A stretch of DNA of 64,000 nt from Escherichia coli (lineage in GTDB: Bacteria > Pseudomonadota > Gammaproteobacteria > Enterobacterales > Enterobacteriaceae): NCBI RefSeq assembly GCF_050320075.1, contig NZ_CP190018.1. One strand, written 5' to 3'. Shown one piece after another: positions 8,935 through 57,846 of the stretch. The position numbers and the translations under genes were made by a program. Each line of letters begins with the position of its first letter. Positions within the stretch are counted from its first letter, which is position 1. The notes under the pieces were generated by a model. It worked only from the letters and a program-made list of their open reading frames with translations. It had not been told where the DNA came from and ran no database searches.

Positions 8935-10046
8935 TTGCGTGGGCTAACTTTAAGTAATTCCCCACTGGACTCGTCGGTGAGAACGTATAAATAACCGTCG
9001 GGTCCAGTGCGAACATCACGAATTCGCTGCCCTCTGTCCGTTAAAATACGGCCATCTTCTGTCACTTTGTCGCCGTTGACGCTCATCACAATGACATCTT
9101 TATCTTTCAGCGCGCCAATAAATAATTTTTGCTGCCACTGGGGGAATTTATCGCTGTTATAGAAGGCCATGCCGCTCACGGCGGGCGAATCTTTCCAGTA
9201 AAAAACAGGTTGCTCGGTCCCGGCGACGATCTCCCCTTTCGCTTCCGGTATCTTAAAGCCTGAATAGTTGATTCCCCAGGTTGCCAGCGGCCAGCCGTAG
9301 TTTTTGCCTTTTTGCGGGATATTAATTTCATCGCCACCGCGCGGGCCATGTTCATTCAGCCATAGTGCATTACTCCACGGATTCATCGCCATTCCTTGCG
9401 GATTACGAATGCCATAAGACCAGATCTCGGCGCGCGCACCGGATTCCTTTATAAAAGGATTATCATCCGGGATTTCGCCCTGGTCGGTCAGACGCACCAG
9501 TTTGCCCTGTAATTTATCCAGATCCTGCGCCGTCGGGCGCTGATTGTTTTCGCCCAGAGCAATAAAAAGATAACCTTTACCGTCGAATACCAGCCGCCCG
9601 CCAAAATGGTTGCCGGTAGACAGTTTTGGCATCTGGCGAAAGACGGTGCGGAAGTCGGTCATCTTTGAGAGATCATCACTTAAGCGGCCATAACCCACAG
9701 CAGTTCCGGCTTTGCCATCATCGCCAACTTCGAAATAACTTAACCAGATGCGGCGAGACTGAGCAAAATCAGGCGCTAAAACCACGTCCAGCAGGCCGCC
9801 CTGCCCGTGCGCCCAAACGTCCGGAACTCCGGAAAGCGGCGCAGATAATCCTTTTCCTGCTTGCCAGTGACGCAACTCGCCGCCGCGCAGAGTGATTAAC
9901 ATACCGTGATTGTCGGGTAAAAAGGCCAGCGCCCAGGGATGGTCGAGTTTGTCTTGCAGTACTTCGACATTTACCGTTGCAGGAGCCGCCCAGAGAGCGG
10001 AAGAAAGACAAATAAGGGGCACAGAGAAAAAGAATTGTCGATGCAT
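8931..10046 (-). CDS. yliI: PQQ-dependent aldose sugar dehydrogenase YliI
   Basis: 371-aa ORF with signal peptide, matches recalled YliI; 4-bp convergent overlap with gstB. Confidence 0.9.
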
Positions 10047-12078: not shown

Positions 12079-12251
12079 TTAATCTTAAGGCAGATCTAAC
12101 AAGGATATTGTTCTTCGATCTGCCTCTGCTACCCTTCCCGATGTCCTACCCTTACGCACAAAATCCCCTGACGCATAAATCGAGAAAAATGAATCGTACT
12201 CGAGGCAACTCTCACTTTTTCACACCAAATTAAAGTTTTGATCGCAATTAC

Positions 12252-12288
12252 TTGAAATAAGCGTAATGGTTACTATAGTAAACATTAC
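12252..12288 (+). promoter_or_regulatory. Candidate sigma-70 promoter with overlapping palindromic operator for the toxin-antitoxin pair
   Basis: TTGAAA (12252-12257), 16-nt spacer, TATAGT (12274-12279); 26-bp near-perfect palindrome GTAATGGTTACTATAGTAAACATTAC (12263-12288) spans the -10; SD AAGGATGG before ATG 12304. Confidence 0.5.
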
Positions 12289-12303
12289 CACAAGGATGGA
12301 TGT

Positions 12304-12690
12304 ATGGGTGTGTATAAGGCAAGACGATTCAGCCAAAGCACGAAAAAACTTGGTATTCACGATAAAGTTCTCATGGCTGCCGCTGAAGAAGTGATGCAGG
12401 GCATATGGGAGGCTGATTTAGGTAGCGGTGTCATCAAAAAACGTTTACCCCTCCAACAAGGAAAGAGTGGTGGAGCCAGAACAATTATCTTTTTTAAATC
12501 AGCAAATCATGTGTTTTTTTATGATGGTTGGTCCAAGAGTGGTCTAAGCAGTAAAGGAACCAAAGAAATCGAAGATGATGAACTGGCGGCCTACAAAAAA
12601 ATGGCAAATGCATTTCTGGCCTTTAGCAATAAGCAAATAGAGGATTTGATCGAAACTGGCTTTTTGATTGAGGTGAAAAATGAGCGATAA
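12304..12690 (+). CDS. RelE/HigB-2-like type II toxin (GKSGGAR motif)
   Basis: 128-aa ORF; motif QQGKSGGARTIIFF resembles recalled HigB-2/RelE-like toxins; precedes and overlaps an HTH antitoxin gene by 11 nt; absent from the K-12 rimO-dgcI interval. Confidence 0.75.
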   Translation: MGVYKARRFSQSTKKLGIHDKVLMAAAEEVMQGIWEADLGSGVIKKRLPLQQGKSGGARTIIFFKSANHVFFYDGWSKSGLSSKGTKEIEDDELAAYKKMANAFLAFSNKQIEDLIETGFLIEVKNER

Positions 12691-13009
12691 ATTACAAATG
12701 ATGCTGGAAGATGCAAAGGAACTGAATGCACTGGGCCTGATGTCTGATAGTGAAGTTGATGCCATTGCCGTCATGGTCAAAGCTCGTGAAGTCAGCGCCC
12801 GTATAGCCAAAGTCAAATCAATGACGGGTGAAGAGATCAAAGCCATCCGCACCCGATACGGCATGTCACAATCCGTGCTGGCACATACAATGGGAATGTC
12901 AAAAGAAAGTGTCTCGAAATGGGAACGAAATGAAATAAAACCGAGCGGCCCGGCACTACGTATTTTGAATACATTGGCAATAAAAGGGCCGGAAGTTTTT
13001 GCAAAGTAA
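12680..13009 (+). CDS. XRE-family HTH antitoxin (HigA-2-like)
   Basis: 109-aa ORF; C-terminal HTH (GMSQSVLAHTMGMSKESVSKWERNEIKPSGPALRILNTL); ATG lies inside the toxin gene 3' end. Confidence 0.75.
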   Translation: MSDKLQMMLEDAKELNALGLMSDSEVDAIAVMVKAREVSARIAKVKSMTGEEIKAIRTRYGMSQSVLAHTMGMSKESVSKWERNEIKPSGPALRILNTLAIKGPEVFAK

Positions 13010-13037
13010 AATGTTTGCAAATGATTTACCACATTCA

Positions 13038-13065
13038 TTAGTACCCCTTGATTAAGGGGTACTAA
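13038..13065. terminator. Hairpin between antitoxin gene and convergent dgcI
   Basis: TTAGTACCCCTT-GATT-AAGGGGTACTAA, ~12-bp stem with 4-nt loop. Confidence 0.55.
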
Positions 13066-13078
13066 CACTATTCTAATT

Positions 13079-14407
13079 CTACTGCCAGCTAATCTGTGCC
13101 CTGCCGTTTTTCTTACTCTTATACAGTCGCTCATCCGCCAGCATTTTCAAGCGTTCAACGGTAGGACATTCATTTGAATGCGCTACACCGATACTGGTGC
13201 TTAAATTAATGCTTCCCACCTGGAAATGAACAATTTCTTTTAGAATCGATAGCAACTCTTCCAGCGTTCCACCCGTATAAATCACCGCAAATTCGTCACC
13301 GCCGAAGCGGTAGACTTTACCTTTATCTACCGGGATCTGTGATTTAAGGATTTTCACCACTTTCATCAACACTTCATCGCCCAGCAAATGACCGAAAGTG
13401 TCGTTGATGTTTTTGAATTTATCGACGTCAAACAGGCACAAATATCCGCCTTTTTCCGGCAGGGCTTTTAAATCTTCGTCAAAGGATTTTCTGCCCATCG
13501 CTTTGGTCAGGTCATCCAGGAACGCCGAGTTATACAGACTGTAGAGTTTTTTGACATCGGCAGCTGAAAAGAAAAGCCCGCCATCCAGTACGCGTTCAAA
13601 ATGGTTATTAATGATGGCTTCTTTCTCCACAATACCACGATTAATCACTCTGCGTACCAGATAGAGGCAACTGACACCCGATATCACTGCCACCAATGCG
13701 GCAAAGAAAATAATCAATGTACAGACCCGCAAATAAACATCTTTTTTATACGCAAATACGTACAATCCGGTCGGCAAATAGGCGAAGTGCTCCATCGCTT
13801 CCGAAACGGTGAAGATGGCGTTTTTAGCATTAAATTCATCACCGGTCACCGGTTTACCGTTCTTAAACAGAGAGAACATCAGGTTCTCGCTATCCATCGC
13901 CAGCGATTTTGACAGTAAAGAAAAACGCTCCAGACCAAGCAAAAATATCAGACTACGATTATGAGTTACCGGATAGAGGTAATAGACGAAGGTTTTACCG
14001 TCAAAAGAGATAAACCCTGTATTTTTGACATGTCGATACTTCACAATCTGCATAATATCTGCACAATAATTTTTCTCGAACTCCTTTACCTGAATACATT
14101 CGTCACTGGAAATCAGATAAGGACCGACATCGTACAAATAAGAGGGTGAAACCGAGTCGGCGTAAGCTGTGCGCAAGCCAACCAACAGCTGTTCCTCCGT
14201 GGGATTTAGCGTGTTGATAAGATCAATTGCCACGCTACGCCGATATTCAGCAATATTTGCCACCGCAAAAGCAGTATCAATAACGGACTGTTTCAGGCCA
14301 TACACCCGTTCCTTTACCATTTGAGTGTAGATCCCGCAGGCAACTGCTGAAATCATGATAAAAATCAGCAGACTGACTGTAAGTACGAACTTATTGATTC
14401 TGGACAT
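13079..14407 (-). CDS. dgcI: Diguanylate cyclase DgcI (YliF)
   Basis: 442-aa ORF with N-terminal TM segments and GGDEF domain (RFGGDEF). Confidence 0.9.
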
Positions 14408-16487: not shown

Positions 16488-16502
16488 GGTAATGACTCCA
16501 AC

Positions 16503-17006
16503 TTATTGATAGTGTTTTATGTTCAGATAATGCCCGATGACTTTGTCATGCAGCTCCACCGATTTTGAGAACGACAGCGACTTCCGTCCCAGCCGTGCCA
16601 GGTGCTGCCTCAGATTCAGGTTATGCCGCTCAATTCGCTGCGTATATCGCTTGCTGATTACGTGCAGCTTTCCCTTCAGGCGGGATTCATACAGCGGCCA
16701 GCCATCCGTCATCCATATCACCACGTCAAAGGGTGACAGCAGGCTCATAAGACGCCCCAGCGTCGCCATAGTGCGTTCACCGAATACGTGCGCAACAACC
16801 GTCTTCCGGAGCCTGTCATACGCGTAAAACAGCCAGCGCTGGCGCGATTTAGCCCCGACGTATCCCCACTGTTCGTCCATTTCCGCGCAGACGATGACGT
16901 CACTGCCCGGCTGTATGCGCGAGGTTACCGACTGCGGCCTGAGTTTTTTAAATGGCGGAAAATCGTGTTGAGGCCAACGCCCATAATGCGGGCAGTTGCC
17001 CGGCAT
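16503..17006 (-). CDS. insB: IS1 transposase InsB (expressed as InsAB' by -1 frameshift)
   Basis: 167-aa ORF, matches recalled IS1 InsB. Confidence 0.9.
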
Positions 17007-17200
17007 CCAACGCCATTCATGGCCATATCAATGATTTTCTGGTGCGTACCGGGTTGAGAAGCGGTGTAAGTGAACTGCAGTTGCCATGTTTTACGGCAGT
17101 GAGAGCAGAGATAGCGCTGATGTCCGGCGGTGCTTTTGCCGTTACGCACCACCCCGTCAGTAGCTGAACAGGAGGGACAGCTGATAGAAACAGAAGCCAC
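16925..17200 (-). CDS. insA: IS1 InsA repressor
   Basis: 91-aa ORF beginning [40 protein letters not shown] (zinc-finger and HTH). Confidence 0.9.
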
Positions 17201-17255
17201 TGGAGCACCTCAAAAACACCATCATACACTAAATCAGTAAGTTGGCAGCATCACC

Positions 17256-26148: not shown

Positions 26149-26180
26149 AGGCCAGATAAGACGTAGCAGGCATCGGTGCA
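26149..26180. repeat. Degenerate REP-like palindromic element
   Basis: GGCCAGATAAGACG...GCATCGG resembles the REP consensus GCCTGATAAGACGCG...CGCATCAGGC; located between convergent moeB and fsaA. Confidence 0.35.
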
Positions 26181-26224
26181 CTCCGCCACGTCATCAGCAA
26201 TTTATGAGGATGCAGAACGTCCGG

Positions 26225-31358: not shown

Positions 31359-31467
31359 ACATCCTGTACATCACATCAAATCATTAAACTTACATTAACT
31401 TATTTATAACTTATATTGTCACATGCAAATCATTATAGTTTCGAATGAAAGTTAATGCGAGGTGGTT

Positions 31468-32733
31468 ATGGCTTCTACTTTTACCAGCGACACATTGCCT
31501 GCCGATCACAAAGCAGCTATCCGTCAGATGAAGCACGCGCTGCGGGCGCAGCTTGGCGACGTCCAGCAGATCTTTAATCAGCTAAGCGATGACATTGCCA
31601 CGCGAGTGGCTGAAATCAACGCACTCAAAGCACAGGGCGATGCCGTCTGGCCGGTGCTGTCTTATGCCGATATCAAAGCAGGTCATGTTACTGCAGAGCA
31701 GCGCATACAGATTAAACGTCGCGGTTGTGCGGTGATAAAAGGCCATTTCCCCCGCGAACAAGCGCTAGGCTGGGATCAGTCGATGCTGGACTATCTGGAC
31801 CGCAACCGCTTTGACGAGGTCTACAAAGGCCCCGGCGATAATTTCTTCGGGACGCTCAGCGCTTCACGTCCCGAGATTTACCCCATCTACTGGTCGCAGG
31901 CGCAAATGCAGGCTCGCCAGAGTGAAGAAATGGCGAATGCGCAGTCGTTTCTCAATCGTCTGTGGACATTTGAAAGTGATGGAAAGCAATGGTTTAACCC
32001 GGATGTGAGCGTCATCTACCCTGACCGTATCCGCCGCCGTCCGCCCGGAACGACCTCCAAAGGTCTTGGAGCGCATACCGACTCCGGGGCACTGGAACGC
32101 TGGCTGCTTCCAGCGTATCAGCGCGTTTTCGCCAACGTCTTTAATGGCAATCTGGCGCAATATGATCCCTGGCATGCGGCACATCGTACGGAAGTTGAAG
32201 AGTACACGGTGGACAACACCACCAAATGTTCCGTGTTTCGGACATTCCAGGGCTGGACAGCGCTCTCTGATATGCTGCCTGGTCAGGGGCTGCTGCACGT
32301 CGTGCCCATTCCTGAAGCCATGGCGTACGTACTGTTACGTCCGCTGCTTGATGATGTGCCGGAGGATGAACTGTGCGGCGTAGCGCCCGGAAGAGTATTG
32401 CCGGTATCAGAGCAATGGCATCCACTGTTGATTGAGGCGTTAACCAGCATTCCAAAACTCGAAGCCGGAGACTCCGTCTGGTGGCACTGCGACGTCATCC
32501 ATTCCGTTGCCCCCGTTGAAAATCAACAGGGCTGGGGCAACGTGATGTACATTCCTGCGGCACCGATGTGCGAGAAAAATCTTGCCTACGCGCACAAGGT
32601 GAAGGCCGCACTGGAAAAAGGCGCATCGCCGGGCGACTTCCCGCGCGAGGACTATGAAACAAACTGGGAAGGACGCTTTACGCTTGCCGACCTCAACATT
32701 CACGGTAAGCGAGCGTTGGGAATCGACAGCTGA
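31468..32733 (+). CDS. ybiU: DUF1479-family protein YbiU
   Basis: ORF 31462..32733; ATG 31468 (MASTFTSDTLPADHK); 421 aa. Confidence 0.85.
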   Translation: MASTFTSDTLPADHKAAIRQMKHALRAQLGDVQQIFNQLSDDIATRVAEINALKAQGDAVWPVLSYADIKAGHVTAEQRIQIKRRGCAVIKGHFPREQALGWDQSMLDYLDRNRFDEVYKGPGDNFFGTLSASRPEIYPIYWSQAQMQARQSEEMANAQSFLNRLWTFESDGKQWFNPDVSVIYPDRIRRRPPGTTSKGLGAHTDSGALERWLLPAYQRVFANVFNGNLAQYDPWHAAHRTEVEEYTVDNTTKCSVFRTFQGWTALSDMLPGQGLLHVVPIPEAMAYVLLRPLLDDVPEDELCGVAPGRVLPVSEQWHPLLIEALTSIPKLEAGDSVWWHCDVIHSVAPVENQQGWGNVMYIPAAPMCEKNLAYAHKVKAALEKGASPGDFPREDYETNWEGRFTLADLNIHGKRALGIDS

Positions 32734-33803
32734 GTGTCGTACAGCCCTTCCCGTTCCACGGCGGTGTTCCCTTTTCCTGGGCGAACCCGCCGCACTGACT
32801 CCCGCACCGCCAATCGTCCGTGCAGCAGCAGCGAGCCCACCGGAGCATCCGGGCGAATCAGCCGCTGTTGCAACATTTGCACCGCTTCATTGCCTAGCTC
32901 ATCGCGTGGCACATGCACAGCCGTCAGGGGAACATCCTCGATTGCCGCAAGGTTAAAGCCGTCGATACTCATCACCGAGACATCCTGTGGTACGCGCAGA
33001 CCACGACGATGTAGCGCATTTACCGTTCCCGCCGCCATAAAATCCCCGCCGACCAGAAACGCCGTCGGCAACGTCTTGCCATTGGCGGCATCCAGCCACG
33101 CTCCGACCTTTTCTTCCGCTTCTTTAGCGCTAAAACTGCTGATATTCAGCAAATGACGGTCATGGTGAAAGGCCAGATTATGCTGACGCCATGATTCTTT
33201 AATCCCTGCAAACCGCTGCTCCATAGTGTAGCGGCGCAGGCACATCACATTCATCACCTCCCGGTGACCCATTTCAAACAGATAGCGGGCGGCGAACGCG
33301 CCAATTAACCGATGGTCCGGCGCAATCGCCGGGAGGCGCATTCGTTCATCACGGCAGTTGATCAGCACACAAGGCTTAGCGAGATCGGCGGCCAGATCAT
33401 GGATGTGCGGATCGTCAATCCCCAGCAGGATCGCCGCCTGCGTATCTGCTTCATTCATTCGCGAGAGAAATAGCGCGGGATCGCTGTCAAACTCCTCCAG
33501 CGCGCAGTAACGCAGCCGCACTTCATGCGGCGATAACGCTTTGCTGATGCTCTGGATCACACGGTAATAAAAGATATCAGATCGTTGGTCAAAAGCGCGT
33601 TGCGGCGCGAAAATAATCAGGTTGTTCAGCAACATACGACCTGCTGCCATGCCATCCATCACGCCCAACTCACGCGCGCAGGCCAGCACCTGTTCGCGAG
33701 CGCGTGCACTGGTATTCGCTTTGCCAGCCAGCACCCGCGAAACCGTACTCGGCGATAGCCCGGTACGTGCGGCGATATCGGCGATTTTCAGCTTCTTGTC
33801 CAT
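32700..33803 (-). CDS. LacI/GalR-family transcriptional regulator (accessory island)
   Basis: ORF 32700..33881; start set at ATG 33801-33803 (MDKKLKIADIAARTGLSPSTVSRVLAG, N-terminal HTH); periplasmic-binding-like effector domain; last ~11 codons are antisense to the ybiU 3' end; not present between ybiU and ybiT in K-12. Confidence 0.8.
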   Translation of the reverse strand: MDKKLKIADIAARTGLSPSTVSRVLAGKANTSARAREQVLACARELGVMDGMAAGRMLLNNLIIFAPQRAFDQRSDIFYYRVIQSISKALSPHEVRLRYCALEEFDSDPALFLSRMNEADTQAAILLGIDDPHIHDLAADLAKPCVLINCRDERMRLPAIAPDHRLIGAFAARYLFEMGHREVMNVMCLRRYTMEQRFAGIKESWRQHNLAFHHDRHLLNISSFSAKEAEEKVGAWLDAANGKTLPTAFLVGGDFMAAGTVNALHRRGLRVPQDVSVMSIDGFNLAAIEDVPLTAVHVPRDELGNEAVQMLQQRLIRPDAPVGSLLLHGRLAVRESVRRVRPGKGNTAVEREGLYDTQLSIPNARLP

Positions 33804-34097
33804 TTTGTGATCTGCCTCTAATTCGGAAATGACAGAATTTTCATGAGCAAAAAAGCCCATTCTGTCTGGCATTAAATCCATTTCAGTAATGTATATCAGT
33901 CACTCATGGAAAAACGTGCACAAAACCCGCTTTCTTTCGCTTTTAGGGTCTCTTACTGTGAATTGGTAGAACAACTTCCATACAAAAATAATGGAAAAAC
34001 GAACAATAAAGACTTTATTTATCAAAAAGTTAAAAGTGGTGTGACAACTCCATTCTGACGTTGCCACACAAACCCTATACCATTCTGTGGAGTGCAT

Positions 34098-35399
34098 ATG
34101 AGTCAGGGTATCAATAACGATATGACTGCCAGTAAACCGCGCCATATCGTCAAAAATCTGCGTTGGTGGATACTGGTCCTTTTTTTGCTCGGTGTTACTG
34201 TCAACTACATCACGCGTAACTCGCTGGGTATTCTCGCCCCCGAACTGAAAAGCAACCTGGGGATTACCACCGAACAATATTCCTGGATTGTAGGTGCTTT
34301 CCAGCTCGCCTATACCCTATTCCAACCGTTGTGTGGATGGCTGATTGACGTCATTGGCCTCAAACTGGGCTTTATGATCTGCGCGGGACTGTGGGCGCTG
34401 GCCTGTCTGATGCATGCGGGGGCGGGAAACTGGGTACATCTGGCGCTGTTGCGCTTCTTTATGGGCGGTGCGGAAGCCGCGGCAACCCCAGCAAACGCCA
34501 AAACCATCGGTGAATGGTTTCCAAAATCAGAACGCCCGATCGCCGCAGGCTGGGCAGGCGTCGGTTTTTCCATCGGTGCCATGCTGGCCCCACCGATTAT
34601 CTATTTTGCCCACGCTTCATTCGGCTGGCAGGGTGCATTTATGTTCACTGGCATCCTGGCGATGCTGTGGGTGGTGCTGTGGTGGGCGTTCTATCACAAC
34701 CCGGATAAGCATCCGAACCTCAGCAAAGCCGAGCTGGACTTTATCCGCCAGGATAACGAAGCGCCCCCGATTAAATTACCCTTTCTGACCGCACTGAAAA
34801 CCGTGGGCAAAAATAAACGCTTTTACGGTATCGCTATCCCGGCCTTTATGGCAGAACCGGCGTGGGCGGTGATGAGTTTCTGGGTGCCGCTATACCTGTC
34901 CAAAACCTATGGCATGGACCTGAAGCAGATCGCATTATTCGCCTGGTTGCCGTTCCTCGCCGCTGATCTTGGCAGTATTGCCAGCGGCTATCTGACCAAA
35001 CTTTACACCCGCCTGTTTGGGCTGAGTCGTGTGAACTCCGTTGTCGCATCATCGGTCAGTGGCGCATTCTTGATGGTTTCGCTGGCGGTGATGGCCTTTA
35101 CCAATAACCCGTATATCGCCATCGTCCTTATTTCCATCGGCGGCTTCGGTCACCAGATCATCTCCTGCATGCTGAGCGCACTGGTGGTGGAATCCTTCGA
35201 CAAAGGTCAGATGGCCACTGTTAACGGCATGCGCGGTTCTGCCGCGTGGATCGCAAGTTTCCTGTTCTCCCTGATTATCGGGGTTACCGCTGACAAAATC
35301 GGCTTTAACCCCCTGTTTATCGCCATGGGCTTCTTTGACCTGATTGGCGCTTTCTTCCTGGTCACCTTTATTGCTGAACGTCGCGCAAAACGCGCCTGA
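34098..35399 (+). CDS. MFS transporter, anion:cation symporter family (ExuT/DgoT-like)
   Basis: ORF 34092..35399; ATG 34098 preceded by GTGGAG SD; 12-TM MFS; strong similarity pattern to recalled ExuT (e.g. TRN, FQPLCGWLIDVIG, GGAEAA, EWFP, FAWLPFLAADLG). Confidence 0.8.
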   Translation: MSQGINNDMTASKPRHIVKNLRWWILVLFLLGVTVNYITRNSLGILAPELKSNLGITTEQYSWIVGAFQLAYTLFQPLCGWLIDVIGLKLGFMICAGLWALACLMHAGAGNWVHLALLRFFMGGAEAAATPANAKTIGEWFPKSERPIAAGWAGVGFSIGAMLAPPIIYFAHASFGWQGAFMFTGILAMLWVVLWWAFYHNPDKHPNLSKAELDFIRQDNEAPPIKLPFLTALKTVGKNKRFYGIAIPAFMAEPAWAVMSFWVPLYLSKTYGMDLKQIALFAWLPFLAADLGSIASGYLTKLYTRLFGLSRVNSVVASSVSGAFLMVSLAVMAFTNNPYIAIVLISIGGFGHQIISCMLSALVVESFDKGQMATVNGMRGSAAWIASFLFSLIIGVTADKIGFNPLFIAMGFFDLIGAFFLVTFIAERRAKRA

Positions 35400-35413
35400 G
35401 AGTGGATGTAAAC

Positions 35414-37777
35414 ATGAAAACGCTGAAAAACTGGACCCTGCACAAACAGTCTGCCCACCACGTTGAACTGCTGGTCGATGGCCAGCATATCCTGTGCCTG
35501 TACGTGCTGGAAGAAAATCTGTTCCGCGTGCTGTTAAAACGCAAAGGCGAGCTGGCGCTGGATCGCACCTGGAGCATTGCTCCGGCGCAGGATGTGCCAT
35601 GGGAAGGGCGCAGCCGCGAAGATCTCAGCGGCTTTAGCCTGCCCGCGTGGACATTGATCCAGCACGACGACACCGTGGTTATCGCCACCGAGTCACTGCG
35701 TGCCACCGTTCACCAGCCGCTGTGGCTGGAGTGGCACTATCGTAACAACGAAGGCGAATGGCTGCCGTTGGTGAATGACCGCCCGACCAGCGCTTATCTG
35801 CTGAATGCCCACGGCGATGGCGTGGCACACTATCAGAGCCGTCGTAAAGATGAACGCTTTTATGGCCTCGGAGATAAAGCCGGCGACCTGCAACGCAACG
35901 GTAAACGTTACGAGATGCGTAACCTCGACGCGATGGGCTACAACGCCGTTAGTACTGACCCGCTGTACAAACACATTCCATTCACCATCACCCGCCGCGA
36001 TGACATTAGCTTCGGCCTGTTTTATGACAACCTCAGCAGCTGCTGGCTGGATCTGGGCAACGAGATCGACAACTACCACACCGCCTATCGCCGCTGGCAG
36101 GCGGAAGCGGGTGATATCGACTACTACCTGTTTACCGGCGAACGCGTACTTGATATCACCAAAGCCTTCGTACGCCTGACCGGCAAAACCCTGTTCGGAC
36201 CGAAATGGAGCCTGGGCTACAGCGGTTCAACTATGCACTACACCGATGCGCCGGACGCACAAAATCAGTTGATGAACTTTATCCGCCTGTGTGAAGAACA
36301 TGCGATTCCCTGCGATTCGTTCCAGCTCTCTTCCGGTTATACCTCAATTAACGGCAAGCGCTATGTGTTCAACTGGAATTACGACAAAGTGCCGCAGCCG
36401 AAAGTGATGAGCCAGGCATTTCACAATGCTGGTTTGCACCTGGCCGCCAATATCAAGCCGTGCCTGTTGCAGGATCACCCACGCTATAACGAAGTGGCAG
36501 AAAGAGGACTGTTCATCCGTGATTCAGAAACAGATGAACCAGAACGTTCCAGCTTCTGGGATGACGAAGGTTCTAACCTCGACTTTACTAATCCGCAGAC
36601 CATCCAGTGGTGGCAGGAAGGCGTGACCACACAGCTTCTGGAGATGGGTATCGACTCCACCTGGAACGACAACAACGAATTCGAAGTATGGGACGGTGAA
36701 GCACGCTGTCACGGCTTTGGTCAGACGATCGCGATCAAACATATTCGCCCGGTGATGCCACTGCTGATGATGCGAGCCTCGATGGAAGCCCAGCAACGTT
36801 TCGCTCCGGAAAAACGTCCGTACTTGATCTCCCGCTCCGGCTGCGCGGGAATGCAGCGCTATGTGCAGACCTGGAGCGGCGATAACCGCACTAGCTGGGA
36901 CACTCTGCGCTACAACACCCGCATGGGTCTGGGGATGAGCCTCTCCGGGCTGTATAACCTCGGTCACGACGTCGGCGGTTTCTCCGGTGATAAGCCGGAC
37001 CCGGAACTGTTTGTACGCTGGGTACAAAACGGCGTGATGCATCCGCGCTTTACGATTCACTCGTGGAACGATGACCATACCGTAAACGAACCGTGGATGT
37101 ATCCGGGCGTCACTCCGGCGATCCGCAGCGCTATTGAGTTGCGCTATCGCCTGCTGCCCTACTTTTATACCCTGATGTGGCAGGCATACGCCGATGATGA
37201 ACCAATGCTGCGTCCGACTTTCCTTGACCACGAGCACGACGTTCAGACTTTTGAAGAGTGTGATGACTTCCTGCTTGGTCGCGATATTTTGGTTGCCAGC
37301 GTCGTAGAGCAAGGCGAGCGCCAGCGCCGTGTATGGCTGCCAGATAACGAAACTGGCTGGTACGATTTCTACAACGGCGAATGGTTCAGTGGCGGTCAGT
37401 GGATCACCCTCGACGCACCGCTGGAGAAACTGCCGCTGATGGTGCGTGCCGGGGCTGGTCTACCGCTCAGCAAACGCATCACCTATGTGAGCGCAGAACA
37501 AGACGATACCCGCGAACTGAAACTGTTCCCGCTGAAAGGTGTGGGCACAACGTCCGGCCTGCTGTTTGAAGACGATGGCGAAAGCTGGGGCTACCAAACT
37601 GGTAATGCGCTTTGGGTGGAATGGGAAATGGTTTGCGATGGGGCGACCATCAACCTGAAAGTCAACGCGCGCGGGGATTATCGACCTGCATGGAGTGCAC
37701 TGAAAGTGTCATTACCAGTGGAAGAAAAACGCACGCTGCTGGTCAATGGTGTTGAAGGGAGTGAATGGATGCGTTAA
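35414..37777 (+). CDS. Glycoside hydrolase family 31 enzyme (alpha-glucosidase-like), specificity unknown
   Basis: ORF 35402..37777; ATG 35414; GH31 signature regions WNDNNEF (nucleophile region, cf. WIDMNE), QTWSGDNRTSW (acid/base region), GHDVGGF. Confidence 0.8.
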   Translation: MKTLKNWTLHKQSAHHVELLVDGQHILCLYVLEENLFRVLLKRKGELALDRTWSIAPAQDVPWEGRSREDLSGFSLPAWTLIQHDDTVVIATESLRATVHQPLWLEWHYRNNEGEWLPLVNDRPTSAYLLNAHGDGVAHYQSRRKDERFYGLGDKAGDLQRNGKRYEMRNLDAMGYNAVSTDPLYKHIPFTITRRDDISFGLFYDNLSSCWLDLGNEIDNYHTAYRRWQAEAGDIDYYLFTGERVLDITKAFVRLTGKTLFGPKWSLGYSGSTMHYTDAPDAQNQLMNFIRLCEEHAIPCDSFQLSSGYTSINGKRYVFNWNYDKVPQPKVMSQAFHNAGLHLAANIKPCLLQDHPRYNEVAERGLFIRDSETDEPERSSFWDDEGSNLDFTNPQTIQWWQEGVTTQLLEMGIDSTWNDNNEFEVWDGEARCHGFGQTIAIKHIRPVMPLLMMRASMEAQQRFAPEKRPYLISRSGCAGMQRYVQTWSGDNRTSWDTLRYNTRMGLGMSLSGLYNLGHDVGGFSGDKPDPELFVRWVQNGVMHPRFTIHSWNDDHTVNEPWMYPGVTPAIRSAIELRYRLLPYFYTLMWQAYADDEPMLRPTFLDHEHDVQTFEECDDFLLGRDILVASVVEQGERQRRVWLPDNETGWYDFYNGEWFSGGQWITLDAPLEKLPLMVRAGAGLPLSKRITYVSAEQDDTRELKLFPLKGVGTTSGLLFEDDGESWGYQTGNALWVEWEMVCDGATINLKVNARGDYRPAWSALKVSLPVEEKRTLLVNGVEGSEWMR

Positions 37778-37784
37778 ATCATTA

Positions 37785-37819
37785 CCGGGGCCGGGAGGCG
37801 ACTGCGCCTTACCCGGTCC
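37785..37819. repeat. REP-like element at the island/ybiT boundary
   Basis: GCCGGGAGGCGACTGCGCCTTACCCGGTCC resembles the REP consensus GCCGGATGCGGCGTGAACGCCTTATCCGGCC. Confidence 0.35.
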
Positions 37820-37956
37820 AGCCATCGAATCCTTTACCTCAGTATTTCACGCTGCAGGAAGGCAGCAAACCTGTAAACCCCGGGAGCTTAAATAAGTAAG
37901 TGACCGGGGTGAACAGGTGAAGCCAATGCATCTGCCGCATGAAAGACGGCGGGAAA

Positions 37957-39552
37957 TTAACCGTCGATCCCTTTACTACGCAGGTAATCTTCGTAATTAC
38001 CGCTAAAGTCGATCACGCGTTCCGGGGTGATTTCCAGAATTCGGGTCGCCAGGGAGCTTACAAACTCACGGTCGTGAGACACAAAGATCAGCGTGCCCTG
38101 ATACAGTTCCAGCGCCATGTTCAGCGACTCAATAGATTCCATATCCAGGTGGTTGGTCGGTTCGTCCATGATCAGAATGTTCGGCTTCTGCATCATTAAC
38201 TTACCAAACAGCATCCGCCCTTTTTCTCCACCGGAAAGCACTTTCGCTGGCTTTTTGATGTCGTCCTGGCTGAACAGCAAACGACCGAGAATGCTGCGTA
38301 CCGCCTGCTCATCATCGCCTTCCTGCTTCCACTGGCTCATCCATTCGAACACGGTCAGATCATTTTCAAACTCATATTCGTGGTCCTGGGCGTAGTAACC
38401 AATGCGTGCGTTTTCAGACCATTTTACGGTGCCGCTGTCCGGTTGCAGATCGCCCACCAGCGTTTTCAGCAGCGTTGATTTACCGACGCCGTTGGTACCC
38501 AGTACAGCCAGTTTTTCACCCACTTCCAGCAGCAGGTTGAGATTTTTAAACAGTGGACCGTTATCAAACCCTTTGGTCAGACCTTCCACTTCCAGCGCGT
38601 TACGGAACAGTTTCTTATCCTGTTCAAAACGGATGAACGGGTTCTGACGGCTGGAGGCTTTCACCTCTTCCAGTTTGATTTTATCAATCTGGCGCGCGCG
38701 CGAAGTTGCCTGGCGAGATTTCGAGGCGTTGGCGCTAAAGCGGCTAACGAAAGATTGCAGCTCAGCAATCTGCGCTTTCTTCTTGGCGTTATCAGCCAGC
38801 AGACGCTCACGCGCCTGGGTCGCCGCCGTCATGTACTCATCGTAGTTACCTGGATAAACGCGCAGCTCGCCGTAATCCAGATCCGCCATGTGGGTACAAA
38901 CCATGTTAAGGAAGTGACGGTCGTGCGAGATGATGATCATGGTGCTGTCACGCTCGTTCAGCACCTGTTCCAGCCAACGAATGGTGTCGATGTCGAGGTT
39001 GTTGGTCGGTTCGTCGAGCAGGAGAATGTCTGGATCAGCAAACAGCGCCTGCGCCAGCAGCACACGCAGCTTCCAGCCAGGAGCAACTTCACTCATCGGG
39101 CCGTAGTGCTGTTCCACTGGAATTCCCACGCCAAGCAACAGTTCACCGGCGCGAGCTTCCGCAGAGTAACCGTCCATTTCGCCGTATTTCACTTCCAGAT
39201 CGGCCACTTTATAGCCGTCTTCTTCACTCATTTCCGGCAAAGCATAGATGCGGTCACGCTCCTGTTTCACTTCCCACAACTCTTTATGCCCCATGATCAC
39301 CGTATCCAACACAGTGAACTCTTCAAAGGCAAACTGATCCTGACGCAGCTTACCAATGCGCTCGTTGGGATCGAGGGAAACGTTACCCAACGTCGGCTCT
39401 AAGTCGCCGCCGAGGATCTTCATAAAGGTGGATTTACCACTACCGTTCGCGCCAATCAGGCCGTAACGGTTGCCGCCGCCAAATTTGACGGAAATGTTTT
39501 CAAACAACGGCTTACTGCCGAACTGCATGGTGACGTTACTGGAAACTAACAC
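37957..39552 (-). CDS. ybiT: ABC-F family ATPase YbiT
   Basis: 531-codon ORF with two ABC domains ([18 protein letters not shown]); start codon GTG as given by the ORF track, exact start uncertain. Confidence 0.85.
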
Positions 39553-49054: not shown

Positions 49055-49773
49055 TTGAATTTAAAAACGTCTCCAAGCATTTTGGTCCAACCCAGGTGCT
49101 GCACAATATCGATTTGAACATTGCTCAGGGCGAAGTCGTGGTGATTATCGGGCCGTCCGGTTCCGGTAAATCGACCCTGCTGCGCTGCATCAACAAACTG
49201 GAAGAAATCACTTCCGGCGATCTGATTGTCGATGGCCTGAAGGTTAACGATCCGAAAGTTGACGAGCGCCTGATTCGCCAGGAAGCAGGTATGGTGTTCC
49301 AGCAGTTTTACCTCTTCCCGCATCTGACGGCGCTGGAAAACGTCATGTTTGGTCCGCTACGCGTGCGTGGCGCGAACAAAGAAGAGGCGGAAAAACTGGC
49401 GCGTGAGCTGCTGGCGAAAGTCGGCCTGGCAGAACGCGCTCACCACTACCCTTCCGAGCTTTCTGGTGGTCAGCAACAGCGTGTGGCGATTGCCCGTGCG
49501 CTGGCGGTAAAACCGAAAATGATGCTGTTCGATGAACCGACTTCCGCTCTTGACCCGGAACTGCGCCATGAAGTGCTGAAGGTTATGCAGGACCTGGCTG
49601 AAGAAGGGATGACGATGGTGATCGTGACCCACGAAATCGGTTTTGCCGAGAAAGTAGCTTCGCGCCTGATCTTTATCGACAAAGGCCGGATTGCGGAAGA
49701 TGGCGATCCGCAGGTGTTAATCAAGAACCCACCGAGCCAGCGCTTGCAGGAATTTTTGCAGCACGTCTCTTAA
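49051..49773 (+). CDS. glnQ: Glutamine ABC transporter ATPase GlnQ
   Basis: 240-aa ORF; Walker [10 protein letters not shown] and signature LSGGQQQR. Confidence 0.9.
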
Positions 49774-49780
49774 CTTCTCA

Positions 49781-49806
49781 GCCTCCCTTTCCCCCGAAAG
49801 GGAGGC
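49781..49806 (+). terminator. Hairpin after glnQ
   Basis: GCCTCCCTTT-CCCCCG-AAAGGGAGGC 10-bp stem; weak U-tract. Confidence 0.5.
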
Positions 49807-57705: not shown

Positions 57706-57712
57706 TTCGTAA

Positions 57713-57740
57713 GCCGGATCAGGCGTTTACGCTACGTCCA
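57713..57740. repeat. REP-like sequence downstream of ybiJ
   Basis: GCCGGATCAGGCGTTTACGC resembles the REP core GCCGGATGCGGCGTGAACGC. Confidence 0.3.
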
Positions 57741-57816
57741 GCACAAGTATTTCCCTGTCTGTTTGCCGACAGACGCATATGCTCTAACCCTCATTGATCC
57801 TATGTTACCCTTGTTT

Positions 57817-57844
57817 GCCCGTCCGCCACTGGACGGGCTTTTTT

Positions 57845-57846
<2 letters not shown>
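57817..57846. terminator. Intrinsic terminator between convergent ybiJ and hcxB
   Basis: GCCCGTCC-GCCACT-GGACGGGC followed by TTTTTTTT. Confidence 0.75.

Follow-up and report, generated by a model that had tools for sequence, protein, structure and literature searches.

REP (or PU) sequences of Escherichia coli, which fall into types Y, Z1 and Z2 with the consensus GCCGGATGCGGCGTGAACGCCTTATCCGGCCTAC, and the BIMEs in which they are arranged, are the described elements that come closest to the palindromes of the locus reported here. The GTAG/CTAC tetranucleotide at the REP end is the site of RAYT cleavage. According to published work the same tetranucleotide forms part of the target of IS621, and BIMEs have already been tied to strain-specific loops, to insertion sequence targeting and to recombination; REPs that lie within 15 nt of a stop codon have moreover been reported, in a review, to stall terminating ribosomes. 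The ERIC or IRU family (RU-1), a MITE of about 127 bp, is the other system of relevance, and a review describes how an ERIC that shares a transcript with the gene preceding it can introduce a site for RNase E and so change the decay of that gene's mRNA.

The window, by which we mean the whole 64-kb stretch of E. coli chromosome analyzed here (64,000 nucleotides), resembles each of these systems in part. It holds three GC-rich, imperfect palindromes, all of them extragenic and starting 10, 10 and 7 nt past the stop codons of the GH31 gene, moeB and ybiJ, respectively; the moeB and ybiJ copies are recognizably of the E. coli types and stand at positions that carry REPs in K-12. They differ from the described elements in that each is present as a single copy with no BIME arrangement in the window, in that the conserved GTAG/CTAC end is absent from all three (CCAG at the GH31 site, TTAC at the ybiJ site, CTGA at the moeB site), and in that the copy at the GH31 site is of another class (GCCGGGTGGCGGC…GCCTTACCCGGCCTAC), typical of Enterobacter, Citrobacter and Kosakonia. 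The polymorphism described for BIMEs and for the insertion sequences that target REPs (IS621, IS1397) has its counterpart in alleles devoid of the neighboring gene cluster, which show a BIME-1-like inverted pair, a REP-to-REP deletion and IS621 inserted at ATCAGGCCTAC; this behavior, however, belongs to an allele absent from the window, whose own relics are no longer targets. As for ERIC, the window contains an element of 124 bp that aligns end to end with the published E. coli consensus, lies intergenically at a gene end, folds into a long hairpin and belongs to a family of about 10 copies per genome, but it is about 75% identical to that consensus and a terminal TA duplication is not demonstrable in the window, where the right flank of the element is the ybiT stop TTA.

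Genes in the window run in the order moeA, moeB, fsaA, ybiY, ybiW, ybiV, ybiU, LacI-family regulator, MFS transporter, GH31, ybiT, ldtB and, further on, ybiJ, and a 1.2-kb probe over the spacer of interest is 100% identical to strain CFSAN061763 and to many others. Blocks shared with K-12 by megablast stop at 32720 and restart at 37964. The features referred to throughout are the following:

26149-26199, minus strand: degenerate REP after moeB, 10 nt past the stop, only its tail half recognizable
32734-37963, no strand: variable segment from the megablast comparison of K-12 with the window, comprising the lacI-family regulator, the MFS transporter, GH31, the REP relic and the ERIC
35402-37777, plus strand: GH31 glycoside hydrolase ORF (Pfam GH31 domains, E 2e-88; annotated as GH31 in the identical strain CFSAN061763)
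37775-37777, plus strand: TAA stop codon of the GH31 ORF 35402-37777
37788-37819, plus strand: probable decayed REP hairpin that begins 10 nt past the GH31 stop; its GC-rich stem of 13 bp has a 2-nt bulge, and the loop reads ACTG
37833-37956, plus strand: full-length ERIC/IRU element (MITE), 124 bp, found with an nhmmer profile (E 3e-25)
37957-39552, minus strand: ybiT ORF, annotated as the ABC-F ATPase YbiT
37957-37959, minus strand: stop codon of the ybiT ORF 37957-39552 (TAA, read as TTA on the plus strand)
57709-57742, minus strand: degenerate Y-type REP in the ybiJ 3' UTR, upstream of the ZbiJ sRNA; the stem begins 7 nt past the ybiJ stop

The 179-bp interval between the two stop codons (37778-37956) is made up of 10 nt of spacer, the 32-nt REP relic, a 13-nt linker and the 124-nt ERIC. 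The first-pass annotation had described this interval as REP-like, a label that does not suit it as a whole, given that 124 of its 179 bases are a full-length ERIC/IRU. Taken as one account with the readings of the hairpin, of the gene cluster and of the BIME developed below, we consider it highly probable that the spacer between the convergent GH31 and ybiT genes consists of two unrelated and well-known enterobacterial repeats. Its annotation should read "ERIC plus REP relic" rather than "REP"; everything found belongs to well-described families, and knowledge of REPs and ERICs as such is left unchanged.

That 37833-37956 is an ERIC is, as a matter of sequence, realistically not refutable given the E-value. 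The profile, built solely from the published 127-nt consensus and the non-orthologous aceF-lpdA and ahpC-ahpF copies, finds 37834-37955 with an E of 3e-25 and a score of 84 bits, the match spanning profile positions 3-125; of 112 columns aligned with the consensus, 84 are identical (about 75%). The fold reaches -53.5 kcal/mol (z -5.8) and is the long hairpin expected of the family, whose central inverted repeat …CCCCGGGAGCTTAAATAAGTAAGTGACCGGGG… is conserved here; the two termini, TTTACC…GGGAAA, likewise form an inverted repeat, and GGGAAA abuts the ybiT stop codon, so that the TTA on the right is that codon itself, and there is no clean TA at the left flank. It is the only ERIC in the window. 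Matches to the right two-thirds of the spacer, at ~77% identity, occur in 5425 of 5426 E. coli genomes, with a median of 10 places in each, and the matches listed are all intergenic with no annotated feature beneath them, as in the aceF-lpdA and ahpC-ahpF spacers. An earlier ERIC survey reportedly covered K-12, O157:H7, CFT073 and Shigella; K-12 and the O157:H7 strain that we checked are without the ERIC-bearing segment. Regarding strand, the element runs in reverse complement to the consensus given by Delihas (2007); according to that paper, its consensus is in turn the reverse complement of the Wilson and Sharp sequence.

The surroundings of the ybiT stop in other genera bear on the age of this element. 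ERIC adjoins the stop codon, always in the same orientation, in 12 of the 57 loci that have both GH31 and ybiT, distributed over at least six genera, and the GH31-ybiT spacer holds 20 of the 28 ERIC matches in the 1.2 Mb searched, yet accounts for 2.2% of the bases. All 20 spacer copies point the same way, and the junction at which the terminal copy ends is gggaaaTTA in every case, a constancy that leads us to favor an old ERIC insertion with subsequent amplification and loss at the site. In other lineages the place of ERIC in this spacer is taken by a BIME or by boxC-like repeats. Several of these arrangements are worth recording on their own account. Tandem ERIC arrays in one orientation comprise six copies in Kosakonia quasisacchari (L041, 9418-10185), three in locus L072 and two in L050; BoxC-like repeats (ccctcaccc…ccctctccc…gggagaggg) occur in loci L011, L018, L020, L022, L023, L026, L030, L051, L054, L063 and L064, of which L030, from Huaxiibacter chinensis, has a tandem array of about five units at about 9380-9640; and within Enterobacter, REP and ERIC alternate at the position adjoining the ybiT stop.

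The search for REPs relied on an E. coli profile grown from 20 strict K-12 seeds to 36 REPs in 250 kb of DNA not orthologous to the window; its consensus, TGCCGGATGCGGCGTAAGCGCCTTATCCGGCCTACG, is in agreement with the published consensus sequences, and it was run with all speed filters off. Profile searches took the place of a strict degenerate REP pattern, which at up to 3 mismatches had zero matches in the window. By this profile no canonical REP exists in the whole 64-kb window, while the orthologous 45 kb of K-12, which served as a control, returned six (E 1e-5 to 1e-14); BIMEs are found at the orthologous or replacing K-12 sites (ybiJ, ybiU-ybiT) and in other genera. The K-12 RefSeq table contains no REP feature, even in its first 50 kb, and since REPs were found in those very 50 kb the missing annotation is uninformative. 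A separate difference between the two strains lies in the glnQ-ybiO spacer, where K-12 (L002, 10589-10742) carries a 153-bp BIME of two inverted canonical REPs around an AT-rich motif and the window has the empty site at 49773-49782; across the shared 45 kb, the window strain is without all three canonical BIMEs of K-12.

The first-pass annotation had reported REP-like palindromes after GH31, moeB and ybiJ and had proposed scanning with a REP consensus as the check. All three palindromes are present and, to judge from their sequences, are REP-derived, but they are decayed, with profile scores that range from weak to nil. The REP profile scores the ybiJ site (57707-57732) highest in the whole window (10.8 bits, a borderline E of 0.02). 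Positions 57709-57742 agree with the Y-type REP at 28 of 34 ungapped positions, a value reached by 0 of 200 dinucleotide shuffles (their maximum being 25), and the site folds at -12.5 kcal/mol (z -2.4). Against Rfam naRNA4 it gives a sub-threshold match of 25.5 bits (E 0.011), and naRNA4 is itself derived from a REP element. K-12 has the same degenerate copy after ybiJ together with 88 bp containing two canonical REPs between that copy and the ybiJ stop, a form present in 4056 genomes. The second-best profile match, at 26149-26173 on the minus strand, is the moeB site (9.8 bits, a borderline E of 0.04), whose K-12 ortholog scores E 2e-4; the window copy has 12 extra loop bases compared with K-12, and its fold is no better than chance (z -0.8). 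Downstream of the ybiJ copy, window positions 57750-57846 match exactly the K-12 small RNA ZbiJ (b4814), with the terminator at 57817-57838, and the distance between ybiJ and ZbiJ varies by strain, the 88-bp BIME being inserted in that gap in K-12.

At the GH31 site the E. coli REP profile finds no match even at E<=10, the outcome that the first-pass annotation had named as refuting its call, provided that REP is taken in the E. coli sense; it is a foreign class of REP that rescues the call. An ungapped stretch, 37790-37821, agrees at 26 of 32 positions with the Enterobacter/Citrobacter-type consensus GCCGGGTGGCGGCTTCGCCTTACCCGGCCTAC, a consensus that was selected for this comparison after the orthologs had been seen; a scan with GCCGGGTGGCGGCTTCGCCTTACCCGGCCTAC places the GH31 site best in the window, the next best reaching 21, and 0 of 200 shuffles exceed 22. 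A mixed foreign-class profile, which is dominated by the GCCCGGTGGCGC subclass, gave only E 0.68, so that the assignment to this class rests on the subclass consensus and on positional alignment. The alignment is with REPs located a few bases past the stop codon of GH31 in other genera, five in number, as seen in Enterobacter chuandaensis, Trabulsiella, Pluralibacter, Citrobacter sp. MGH106 and an uncultured relative (loci L013, L028, L031, L047 and L037), where the REP is usually the first of a BIME and to which the relic corresponds column for column; 22 alignment columns are invariant among orthologous and non-orthologous copies of the class, and the stretch TCATT between stop and REP is common to the window and Trabulsiella. 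The class is dispersed, with 11 non-orthologous copies in other genera (Enterobacter, Citrobacter, Kosakonia), and none was seen in 295 kb of K-12. The window copy ends in CCAG where the class has CTAC and is off the class consensus at 6 of 32 positions. Within the account given above, the hairpin is thus very probably the worn remnant of a REP or BIME that holds this position in several other genera.

The genes to the left of this spacer are the source of the notion, expressed in the first-pass annotation, of an island whose edge the palindrome would mark. The GH31/ybiT junction occurs in 575 of 5426 complete E. coli genomes (10.6%). GH31 relatives were taken with their flanks from 80 species representatives, and in 44 of the 80, belonging to about 20 enterobacterial genera, the order ybiU-lacI-MFS-GH31-ybiT is the same; the syntenic carriers include Enterobacter, Citrobacter, Kluyvera, Klebsiella, Kosakonia, Trabulsiella, Leclercia, Siccibacter and Salmonella enterica subsp. 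diarizonae, and Buttiauxella and Cedecea retain lacI-MFS-GH31-ybiT-ldtB. Because the cluster is syntenic across about 20 genera, the event is read as a loss and not as a gain, the direction of change resting on synteny. By comparison with a horizontally acquired island, the segment has this synteny in 44 of 80, no mobility genes (neither integrase nor tRNA nor IS element was found in it), and a GC content only 3 points up (54.4% versus 51.3% for the window). The simplest reading of these sequences, and a further part of the account that we hold to be highly probable, would be that lacI-MFS-GH31 is an ancestral cluster of enterobacteria and that about 89% of E. coli no longer have it; for annotation, it would then be treated as an ancestral cluster lost in most E. 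coli rather than as an acquired island. The C-termini of YbiT (…IDG* versus …IE*) and of YbiU were considered as a means to polarize the event and discarded, both forms occurring in other genera. In the window, the convergent frames of ybiU (31462-32733) and the lacI-family gene (32700-33881) overlap by 34 nt at their 3' ends, as they do in nearly all other loci in which both genes were found.

Comparison of junctions between genomes with and without the island, another check put forward in the first-pass annotation, gave the following picture: 575 genomes have the island, island-less alleles have a BIME in its place, and variants of the latter are seen. K-12 has no lacI-MFS-GH31 between ybiU and ybiT, the 5.2-kb segment being replaced by a 240-bp spacer that contains a canonical inverted REP pair and, adjoining ybiT, a hairpin; between the REPs lies an AT-rich motif that we take to resemble the IHF-binding type. 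The parts of this spacer that are not REP resemble neither the island nor any of the 80 loci to a detectable degree, and because these non-REP parts share nothing with the island the mechanism at the breakpoint is not readable from the sequences. The 83 bp that follow ybiU in K-12 were considered as a remnant of the GH31 3' end and rejected, the similarity seen by sensitive blastn passing through the REP part only. An uninterrupted ybiU-BIME-ybiT arrangement is found in 2686 of 5426 genomes, a figure that includes an O157 subtype with a 73-bp REP-to-REP deletion; what O157:H7 is missing is the 73 bp that separate the GCCTGAT repeat of one REP from that of the other. IS621 lies within the BIME in up to 1256 of the 5426, an upper bound inasmuch as the query for the IS621 junction includes repeated BIME sequence; the insertion is in the second REP, exactly at GTAGGCCTGAT; the natural target published for IS621, ATCAGGCCTAC, is the same sequence in reverse complement. 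A form without ybiU is present in 1053 of 5426 genomes, among them that of the type strain ATCC 11775. Within E. coli, then, the ybiU-ybiT interval exists in several structural forms, and its alleles (cluster, BIME, BIME with REP-REP deletion, BIME with IS621, ybiU lost) form a series that offers a compact natural set for the turnover of small repeats at one intergenic site. To complete the account, the BIME of the island-less alleles is very probably the element that is still undergoing REP-associated change. Examples of the IS621 insertion are found in E. coli VE-T2 (L091, 3125-4643) and M10 (L092); in the allele without ybiU (L093 and L094 2962-3160; E. coli ZJ3920 and GN03507), what comes after ybiV is a BIME that has diverged from that of K-12 (about 86% identity), then a different hairpin and ybiT.

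Several other explanations deserve weighing against this account. As regards the two repeats, the stem at 37788-37819 might be a lineage-specific stabilizer or terminator of the mRNA 3' end whose likeness to a REP is convergent GC-rich palindromy. The silence of the E. coli profile and the E of 0.68 from the mixed profile would agree with such a stem, as would its stability (-24.6 kcal/mol, z -2.55, with 5 of 200 shuffles folding equally well) and its closeness to the stop codon; the ungapped foreign-class match at 26 of 32 positions, which no shuffle in 200 reaches, the 22 columns invariant across REP copies, the TCATT shared with Trabulsiella, and the lack of both a T-run after the stem and a predicted terminator-like site argue against it, and we regard it as very unlikely. 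The ERIC, for its part, might not be inherited at the ybiT stop and might instead have inserted repeatedly and independently at the stop-codon TA in different genera. ERICs are indeed MITEs flanked by TA, E. asburiae has an ERIC where its Enterobacter relatives have a REP, and tandem arrays of 2 to 6 copies speak for local activity, all of which keeps recurrent insertion a possible, if rather unlikely, origin; independent insertions of a near-palindromic MITE would nonetheless be expected in both orientations, whereas 20 of 20 copies share one and the terminal copy always stands at gggaaaTTA. A more far-reaching proposal sees in the ybiT stop a family-wide landing pad at which ERIC, REP/BIME and boxC-like repeats replace one another, with an orientation-fixed ERIC kept since before the split of Escherichia, Citrobacter and Kosakonia to regulate ybiT or to insulate the convergent genes, and with a mechanistic link, in E. 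coli, between losing the GH31 cluster and acquiring the BIME; as a combination of these three parts it strikes us as quite doubtful.

As regards the cluster, it could have been gained from an Enterobacter- or Citrobacter-like donor by recombination through ybiU and ybiT, the foreign-class REP having traveled along as a passenger. The REP class fits other genera and had no member in the K-12 DNA sampled, the GC content exceeds that of the window, and only 10.6% of E. coli genomes have the cluster; of these points, the GC difference and the REP class are the only support for a re-acquisition from an unsampled donor. Such a donor would have to be reconciled with cluster proteins that are 73-91% identical to those of other genera and no closer than the flanking core genes (GH31 76-91%, with the best GH31 outside Escherichia at only 91% amino acid identity; lacI product 73-89%), with the departure of the relic from its class consensus at 6 of 32 positions, which indicates long residence, with a second Escherichia species-level cluster that has the same segment and spacer at 99% identity, and with flanks that are typical of E. 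coli, 97.8-98.3% identical to K-12 right up to both stop codons. We therefore deem a horizontal gain improbable. Much the same holds for the idea, put forward in the first-pass annotation, that the palindrome is a recombination or insertion hotspot through which the island came or went. REPs and BIMEs are documented IS targets and recombination sites associated with strain-specific loops, the island-less alleles have a BIME exactly where the island would be, and that BIME has suffered both IS621 insertion and REP-REP deletion, so the idea holds for the locus, ybiU loss included. It is not supported for the palindrome that was named: the edge of the island is occupied by the ERIC, and the palindrome sits about 140 bp inward of the right end of the variable segment. 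This palindrome is not at the breakpoint and no longer has the CTAC tail, an exact IS621 target (ATCRGGCCTAC) occurs nowhere in the window, the REP class of the relic was not seen in 295 kb of K-12, the K-12 spacer and the island share no non-REP sequence, and the cluster is ancestral by synteny. A hotspot role for this palindrome in the gain or loss of the cluster accordingly appears to us unlikely, and the loss of an ancestral cluster from most E. coli is the reading that we prefer.

What these repeats might do can be approached through their position. No intrinsic terminator is predicted in the GH31-ybiT spacer, in which the REP relic and the ERIC are the sole structured barriers. Both repeats would be transcribed as 3' UTR, the location between convergent stops making transcription of the ERIC likely. 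Because all three REP relics start 7-10 nt past a stop codon, that is, at less than 15 nt, they fall within the range reported for ribosome stalling, and the stem after GH31 may by analogy stall the terminating ribosomes; it may likewise block 3'-to-5' exonucleases and so protect the GH31 transcript. The ERIC hairpin, again by analogy, might modulate the decay of the ybiT mRNA and of GH31 read-through transcripts by way of RNase E. It is from such parallels with described elements that we infer functional roles for the REP stem and the ERIC.

The remainder of the window provides a few observations unrelated to the spacer. RybB, at 735-813, is the single Rfam match at the gathering threshold (104.8 bits), a permissive Rfam scan of the window giving only sub-threshold matches beyond it. 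A copy of IS1 at 16488-17255 disrupts pdeI; it is 99.1% identical to K-12 IS1A over 768 bp and bordered by a duplication of aaaaatgg, and K-12 has no IS1 at this place. Lastly, the gap between rimO and dgcI (12084-13079) measures ~1 kb in the window versus 42 bp in K-12 and contains two ORFs, 12304-12690 and 12680-13009, that correspond to a RelE-family toxin (Pfam E 7e-33) and an HTH_3 protein, a pair that looks like a toxin-antitoxin cassette.
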